Below are positions 24,376 to 24,908 of a DNA stretch of 24,908 nucleotides, one piece after another. The first letter of the stretch is position 1. The number at the start of each line of letters is the position of its first letter. The notes under the pieces were generated by a model. That model was not told the origin of the DNA. It did not search any database and saw only the letters and a program-made list of their open reading frames with translations. The position numbers were made by a program, and so were the translations under genes. Location of the stretch: the IMG/VR virus record IMGVR_UViG_3300020432_000049, positions 1-24,908 of that record, one strand, 5' to 3'. The DNA comes from a virus (lineage: Duplodnaviria; Caudoviricetes).

Positions 24376-24405
24376 GAAAAAGAAAAGGAGGGTATAATAC
24401 CCTCC
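24376..24405 (-). terminator. Rho-independent terminator downstream of the beta-barrel-like gene
   Basis: Minus strand GGAGGGTA-TTA-TACCCTCC (8-bp perfect stem) followed by TTTTCTTTTTC. Confidence 0.85.
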
Positions 24406-24428: not shown

Positions 24429-24800
24429 TTAGAAAGTGTACTTAAGTCCTGCTTTCCCTGCCCAGTCTACGTCATCAACGTTAGTTGCTGCTGATAATTC
24501 ACCATAGACACCAACGCTTTCGTTGATTGCCTTACCACCACCGATGTAACCGATAAGTTCAGTGTCACCAAACTCGTCAGCAGTTTCTGTGTGGGTAACT
24601 GTAGGACCACCAGATACATACCAGTCAATTCCATTAGGAGTTGTACCTTCGTATCCAAGTTGGAATTCCCATGTGCCTGATGAATATGCTCCATCTGGAT
24701 ATGAACCACTTGCTTCAACATTAACGTATGGACCAGCAAAAGCGGCTCCAGAGAATAGAAGAGGTGTTGCTGCTAAAGCAGCGATTGTTGATTTAATCAT
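24429..24800 (-). CDS. Small secreted outer-membrane beta-barrel-like protein
   Basis: Signal peptide ending AFA, alternating amphipathic beta strands (PYVNVEA, WEFQLGYEG, WYVSGGP, VGVYGELSA) and C-terminal GLKYTF. Confidence 0.7.
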   Translation of the reverse strand: MIKSTIAALAATPLLFSGAAFAGPYVNVEASGSYPDGAYSSGTWEFQLGYEGTTPNGIDWYVSGGPTVTHTETADEFGDTELIGYIGGGKAINESVGVYGELSAATNVDDVDWAGKAGLKYTF

Positions 24801-24809
24801 TTTTGTTTT

Positions 24810-24900
24810 TAAGTTTCTCGCAGAAAATGTCCCTGCGGATGTTAGACTACCCCGACATGGGTGTCTTTGAATCTACGCAGGGGCACGATCTTTCGATCCC
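24810..24900 (-). ncRNA. Structured 5' leader RNA (candidate cis-regulatory element)
   Basis: GATC-GAAA-GATC GNRA hairpin, a 7-bp CCCTGCG/CGCAGGG stem enclosing AGAC-ACCC/GGGT-A-GTCT, and a TTTCT-GCG-AGAAA hairpin just before the A-rich start region. Confidence 0.6.
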
Positions 24901-24908
24901 TTTGTAAT

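Follow-up and report, generated by a model that had tools for sequence, protein, structure and literature searches.

A covarying modular leader RNA upstream of the DUF680 gene of marine cyanomyoviruses, possibly a transcription attenuator in its Prochlorococcus-phage form

The window, by which we mean the whole stretch of 24,908 nucleotides that was analysed, is the entire source record, a 24.9 kb virus sequence with T4-like cyanophage genes. Near one end, on the minus strand, a DUF680 gene is preceded by a leader of 108 nt upstream of its ATG (24800). All of the elements that an earlier note on this DNA had named in the leader were found where that note had put them on the minus strand when the sequence was checked. 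The features discussed below are as follows.

24377..24405, minus strand: intrinsic terminator of the DUF680 gene, an 8-bp stem (hairpin 24405-24387) with a T tail, from a terminator scan on the relative L001
24429..24800, minus strand: DUF680 / PhCOG173 / Phage_OMP gene, 123 aa (PF24653, E = 2.7e-37; phrog_417)
24801..24813, minus strand: spacer to the start codon, A-rich and without a Shine-Dalgarno sequence
24866-24814, minus strand: core, running from hairpin P2 (GUCG in its loop) through CAUC and hairpin P3 to AG
24844..24866, minus strand: P2 core hairpin, with the conserved GUCG (24856-24853) in its loop
24838..24841, minus strand: CAUC junction, conserved, 10-11 nt after GUCG
24814..24837, minus strand: P3 hairpin and tail, CGCAGG (24837-24832) with UCUGCG (24824-24819), AG (24818-24817) and A (24814)
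24831..24882, minus strand: P1 rival stem, CCCUGCG (24882-24876) with CGCAGGG (24837-24831), enclosing P2, excluding P0 and P3, and predicted to be terminator-like
24824..24827, minus strand: U-run after P1, four U here, three bases past the stem; most relatives in the same subtype have 5-8
24874..24906, minus strand: P0 5' hairpin, with a UAC/GUA and AGGG/CCCU lower stem, an internal loop and a CGA/UCG apex; CCCUGCG is part of the 3' arm

Isolate homologues of the window gene are annotated as DUF680. The family is frequent among marine T4-like cyanophages, with matches in 420 phage records, and its product is predicted to be a small outer-membrane beta-barrel-like protein. According to a prediction in a recent preprint (bioRxiv 10.64898/2026.10.24.761521), it forms half a barrel in the outer membrane and dimerises. 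Since loss-of-function mutations in DUF680 swept populations of S-TIM4 evolved on WH8102, as described for this one host in passages of PMC6224464, DUF680 dosage plausibly matters. The gene is closed by its own terminator, as the earlier note had stated.

The nearest relative, L001, has a leader identical to the window copy, and upstream of it lies TTGACA-17-TAACCT, a promoter judged by eye; a consensus promoter scanner reported only a shifted site there. As the L001 promoter is directly upstream of an identical leader, the window leader is probably almost complete from its presumed start, and the window edge, beyond which the element had been thought possibly to extend, removes the promoter only. 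A sigma70-like promoter is predicted no more than 150 nt away in 105 of 114 leaders of the window subtype. The stretch was also found in contigs from 14 RNA runs, and among the four examined the gene was covered in four and the leader in three; these contigs may be of DNA origin and carry no information on transcript starts, ends or level, and they are given no weight here. The predicted folding energy of the leader is -34.5 kcal/mol (z = -3.74; equalled by 0 of 200 shuffles). Of 1000 dinucleotide shuffles, 4 contained a GC-rich 5-mer able to pair on both sides. The GC-rich segment described earlier is real over 24812-24900 (51.7% versus 38.9% for the window), but the whole 108 nt, at 44.4%, is close to the gene itself (44.1%).

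Counts from loci selected by pattern are biased toward those patterns, and the main tests were repeated on loci selected by protein. Our core test set comprised 157 unique DUF680 upstream regions selected by protein similarity, 135 of which carried the core anchors, namely CAUC located 36-55 nt upstream of the start and CNAG downstream of it. The 22 regions without anchors were two mis-called starts in which the core is present, those of three podoviruses and of P-TIM40, and 16 additional gene copies (second or later). The six P3 pairs were kept in 122, 124, 121, 122, 113 and 122 of 124 unique cores, and in the 124 protein-selected cores P3 had 3.93 of 4 Watson-Crick pairs versus 2.66 ± 0.09 when arms were swapped. 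Five compensatory variants of the window-type P3 were found among the isolates Syn9, S-SM2, S-CAM1, S-TIM4 and metaG-MbCM1. For P2, the stem measured 5.9 bp versus 2.5 ± 0.14 after arm swap (119 protein-selected cores). In alignment A2 all six P2 pairs covary and RNAalifold recovers both hairpins, with two-sided change in 10 of 12 pairs; this alignment was selected to fit a single P2 register (32 of 99 diverse cores), so that P2 pairing is overstated in it. P2 corresponds to the bulged 8-bp inner stem (24866-24844) of the earlier note and is a covarying hairpin of the universal core; its pairing probability in the window is 0.98, and the inner alternative TAGATT/AGTCTA proposed beside it failed, being either not conserved or of low probability.

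GUCG was present in 120 of the 124 cores and stood 10-11 nt before CAUC in 110 of those 120, and CAUC-P3-AG is the most constrained part of the leader. In L382, L390, L353 and L393 the GUCG loop is lost with the P2 stem and CAUC-P3-AG kept, and in L470, L351, L420 and L364 one arm of a stem contains GUCG. As partners of the GUCG loop, the P0 CGA, a 3' GCGAG and the start codon were considered and rejected, since inspection, uncounted, revealed no covariation. A 3-codon ORF runs from the P2 loop in the window (24858-24847, minus strand). A test for a leader-peptide attenuator found no conserved short ORF, the U of its AUG being present in only 136 of 217 cores.

A covariance model of the core, R1, matched the window once (24871-24811, 42.7 bits) and gave a single strong match, 5' of DUF680, in each of Syn9, P-SSM2, S-SM2, S-CAM1, RB11-B and S-TIM4; it had no match in P-TIM40 or three podoviruses, so that the core was single-copy in six of the seven myoviruses searched. 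Among 100 of 120 metagenome loci found by DNA pattern, R1 scored strongly at 30, all of which precede DUF680 (recognised by HMM in 29, with one ending at the contig end). Searches of 151 host genomes with R1 returned two weak matches (E = 0.017 and 0.048) that had no CAUC-P3 on inspection, three hosts with weak PF24653 matches returned one (E = 0.3), and the P0 model, R2, matched in 0 of 101. As 36-150 of several hundred candidates were scored per genome, these scans mean not found, not absent: within this limited sensitivity, we found no convincing host copy of the core.

Comparison of the leaders indicates that the real 5' element of the window copy is the hairpin P0, instead of the GNRA hairpin GATCGAAAGATC (24898-24887) of the earlier note; that sequence is present, but its pairing probability of 0.10, and a 4-bp stem possible in just 25 of 114 subtype leaders, mark the hairpin as incidental. 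R2 matched the window once (24908-24872, 39 bits). Over 24 copies of P0, drawn from both DUF680 and psbA contexts, two-sided change occurred at 6 of 11 pairs and the CGA/UCG apex was invariant (24 of 24). P0 precedes 14 of 77 unique phage psbA leaders, where it lies just 5' of PhotoRC-II and the core is absent, and it sits directly 5' of the PhotoRC-II matches in six of seven psbA loci scanned. Two complete phage records have exactly two copies each, one 5' of DUF680 and one 5' of psbA. Since P0 covaries across the two contexts, the home partner of CCCUGCG is the 5' end. P0 marks a Prochlorococcus-phage subtype of the leader, to which the window belongs and which accounts for 61 of the 124 cores; it was seen in 29 records, of Prochlorococcus phages and of single-cell marine viruses.

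The other 63 of the 124 cores lack P0 and P1. Many Synechococcus-phage leaders consist of the core alone, sometimes directly after the promoter, as in Syn9 and S-CAM1. Forty leaders, including L212, L244 and L280, have a different 5' motif, CCTCAA(C/T/A)TACTCG, and are Synechococcus-type DUF680 leaders; the motif is often a hairpin loop and resembles the P0 apex. It also stands 5' of another ORF, presumably porin-like, in four viral loci (L884, L892, L898 and L914).

The earlier note had recognised that the CGCAG strand can pair with either of two segments, including a second CTGCG at 24823-24819, in mutually exclusive folds. This is confirmed, but the two pairings are unequal: the downstream one (P3) is universal and covarying, and the upstream one (P1) is limited to a subtype. 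The 7-bp stem of P1 exists as described, but it is confined to that subtype and lacks two-sided change. In 45 subtype leaders 93% of the P1 cells were paired with 0 pairs showing two-sided change, and swapping partners left pairing unchanged (5.88 versus 5.88 of 6). Covariation among homologous leaders is therefore present in P2, P3 and P0 and absent in P1. In the window copy P1 has a probability of 0.997 and P3 one of 0.003, at a cost of 4.6 kcal/mol; across 114 subtype leaders the median difference between the two folds is 0, with 57 leaders within 2 kcal/mol. Our comparisons show that the conserved predicted folds are the core and P0, that P1 excludes both and that a U-run follows P1 only in P1-capable leaders.

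Despite the absence of compensatory change, four observations suggest that P1 is under selection. At least five U follow P1 in 50 of 61 subtype leaders versus 0 of 63 others, and none of the 61 has an A-run there. The P3 5' strand, which is common to P1, is near-invariant in the subtype (diversity 0.013 versus 0.344 in the others), although the P2 arms vary to the same extent in both groups (0.55 versus 0.50) and protein identities are close (0.76 versus 0.71). Pairing of the P0 arm with CGCAGGG is stronger in 61 DUF680 leaders (-12.1 kcal/mol) than in 14 psbA leaders (-7.6 kcal/mol). Finally, the two folds are nearly equal and P1 is predicted in the nascent RNA of 59 of 61 subtype leaders. 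All four are open to an effect of shared ancestry: subtype leaders are scattered over several parts of the protein tree, but they share ancestry, so that the U-run contrast and the strand invariance may reflect few independent events. Moreover, three of the 14 psbA leaders have the same CCCUGCG arm with the CGCAGG partner absent, so P0 alone could explain the arm. The 5-U run is missing in 11 of the 61 subtype leaders, the window copy among them. A terminator scanner, which admits loops of 3-8 nt only, made no call on the window P1 with its four U; P1 closes a large nested loop, which a classical terminator hairpin does not.

We tentatively favour the reading that this covarying modular leader acts, in its Prochlorococcus-phage form, as a transcription attenuator in which P0 is the antiterminator and P1 with the U-run is the terminator. 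As expected of an attenuator, P0 offers an alternative antiterminator that uses the 5' arm of P1: the arm is shared, and P0 covaries. P0 would fold first and hold the CCCUGCG arm, allowing read-through; were the arm released, P1 would form, the U-run would follow and transcription would stop. After read-through the core would form and be recognised, probably by a protein aiding translation or stability. As transcription has passed the U-run before P3 is complete, the core could not sense for termination, and the P0 apex is the better candidate; the signal would probably stabilise P0, whose invariant apex is common to phage psbA leaders. Given its weak U-run, P1 in the window copy may act mainly by destroying the core, and given the low probability and cost of P3 there, the core would need a factor or kinetics to form. 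The predicted folds give bases -13 to +3 similar access (0.83 versus 0.77 unpaired), and AGG precedes the start in 0 of 61 subtype versus 50 of 63 other leaders; equal start access without a Shine-Dalgarno sequence makes an effect of the switch on transcription more likely. The earlier description of a riboswitch-like or protein-binding cis-regulator holds insofar as the leader RNA acts in cis, is conserved and covaries, but there is no sign of a metabolite ligand.

Intrinsic-termination attenuators include the protein-controlled RAT leaders of Bgl/Sac type and the PyrR leaders. The DUF680 leader resembles these systems in that a 5' hairpin arm can swap into a GC-rich stem that is followed, in most subtype leaders, by a U-run. 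It differs from them in having no known binding motif or leader peptide, in that P1 closes a nested hairpin, and in the separate conserved core made after read-through. Dedicated to one gene and strongly covarying, the leader would be a direct handle on how DUF680 dose is set, and its presence in the cultured phages P-SSM2, P-SSM3, P-HM1/2, Syn9 and S-TIM4 makes the predictions testable. The sharing of P0 with psbA would suggest that photosynthesis and envelope genes are regulated together, after initiation, in infected cells, and that phage genes exchange RNA modules.

The main rival to attenuation, possible though somewhat doubtful, is a static leader whose hairpins P0, P2 and P3 do not rearrange and serve to shield the mRNA 5' end or to offer a site for a translation-boosting protein, P1 being accidental. 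The confinement of covariation to P0, P2 and P3 is consistent with this, as are the roughly half of cores without the rival stem, in which P3 has a probability of 0.93-0.97, and the retention of P0 before psbA, where P1 formation is impossible. A static leader nevertheless leaves the subtype-specific U-run and the near-invariant P3 strand unexplained, as well as the advantage of P1 over the conserved core in the window copy.

A broader proposal, which we regard as unlikely, is that the leaders form a new class of cyanomyovirus sensor RNA with a near-universal core and plug-in modules, in which P0 senses a small molecule or a light-linked host factor. If this were true, the modules would be a terminator in Prochlorococcus phages, an anti-Shine-Dalgarno in some Synechococcus phages and none in others, and sensing by P0 would couple remodelling of the outer membrane by the phage to the phage photosynthesis genes. 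Quite unlikely, in our estimation, is a metabolite or ion riboswitch with P2-CAUC-P3-AG (or P0) as its aptamer and with interchangeable 5' modules as expression platforms, a terminator in the Prochlorococcus subtype and an anti-Shine-Dalgarno in a Synechococcus subtype. Like riboswitches, the leader combines conserved secondary structure and covariation with conserved unpaired bases (GUCG, CAUC, AG and A at fixed spacing amid two covarying stems), and it is placed consistently between a predicted promoter and the start of a coherent gene set. In addition, for 14 of 21 subtype-II leaders with a window-type P3, a set that was partly pattern-selected, prediction places the CCUC of the alternative 5' motif in a pairing with the GAGG ribosome site at a probability above 0.5. 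However, the leader serves a single gene family without pathway logic, the R1 and R2 scans found no convincing host copy, the 3' half of the core is transcribed later than the U-run and so would be unable to decide termination, the GUCG loop is lost in four leaders, and many leaders have no platform.

That the switch acts directly on translation by masking the DUF680 start region, as the earlier note had implied, we consider very unlikely. The rival folds do stop 13-18 nt short of the AUG, and predicted accessibility differs for bases -22 to -13 (0.31 versus 0.47 unpaired), but neither fold leaves bases -13 to +3 much more open than the other, and there is no Shine-Dalgarno sequence in the 61 subtype leaders. 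The hairpin TTTCTGCGAGAAA (24826-24814), noted 13 nt before the ATG, is likewise there as sequence, but at a TTTCT/AGAAA probability of 0.02 it is incidental. A DNA-level element such as an operator or palindromic site is highly improbable: the motif adjoins promoters and its GTCG-CATC spacing is fixed at 10-11 nt, but stem letters vary freely with pairing kept, G-U pairs are frequent and the conserved letters are non-palindromic.

Searches against Rfam 15 (4227 families) gave 0 matches in the window at the gathering threshold; at E up to 10 the leader was overlapped only by a chance snoRNA match on the opposite strand, and the leaders of 20 relatives and four isolate loci had no match. No Rfam family thus accounts for the leader, and as a positive control the same searches recovered manA, wcaG and PhotoRC-II elsewhere in related loci. 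The leader is not described in the passages of the cyanophage and RNA literature compared, and an earlier computational listing is possible. The core motif does not appear in the passages and eight supplements, one in part, of Weinberg 2010 (PMC2864571). The passages and four of the six text supplements of Fremin 2023 have no motif or DUF680 string, the sequence content of those files being uncertain. We conclude that this leader family of marine cyanomyoviruses is genuine and, within the reach of these searches, has not been described; the attenuator in the window subtype is plausible.

PhotoRC-II (RF01717), in the parts of PMC2864571 compared, is likewise a 5' leader with two hairpins that accompanies a single gene in marine cyanophages, and P0 adjoins its matches in psbA leaders. 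It differs in its conserved letters and its gene, it does not score on the DUF680 leader, and the P0 apex lies outside the PhotoRC-II match. The same parts of that paper describe manA (RF01745), wcaG (RF01761), glnA (RF01739) and Downstream-peptide (RF01704) as marine cyanobacterial or cyanophage cis-regulatory RNAs, glnA and Downstream-peptide being glutamine riboswitches; none of the four scores on the DUF680 leader, the manA and wcaG matches lying elsewhere. CfrI of S-PM2 is also a cyanophage non-coding RNA, of ~225 nt and antisense both to psbA and to a homing endonuclease gene according to passages of PMC2984593 and PMC9602691. These passages rule it out as the identity of the leader, CfrI being antisense to the psbA 3' end and the leader being in sense with DUF680. 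A link to CGRE1/Yfr2 was also dropped, as the literature passages compared suggest no match.

Several further observations concern the surroundings of the gene. Leader-less second or further DUF680-like copies occur at L082:3741, L330:1223, L331:1101 and 13 more positions. The one in P-SSM2 stands 5' of pstS, and upstream of it is CTTA-N7-CTTA, which PMC3037559 gives as the consensus of the pho box; these paralogues appear to be regulated differently. DUF680 proteins of the Prochlorococcus-phage clade are found with Synechococcus-type leaders in L329 (S-TIM4) and in L036 and L328 (metaG-MbCM1 type), which suggests that leader and gene may recombine. In one relative a manA RNA (L075:130-317) lies ~1.1 kb upstream of the DUF680 leader, and in another, S-CAM1, a wcaG RNA (L545:1714-1810) lies ~150 nt upstream. 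The podoviruses L325 (NATL1A-7) and L326 (P-SSP10) have no core; another structured stretch and a tiny ORF precede gp222 there, in what we take to resemble the Downstream-peptide riboswitch arrangement. Palindromes, AACTGGCACA..TGTGACAGTT and GTTAC..GTAAC, recur near the promoters of L002, L004, L043, L074, L412, L465 and others, often between a late-type TAAATA and the leader.
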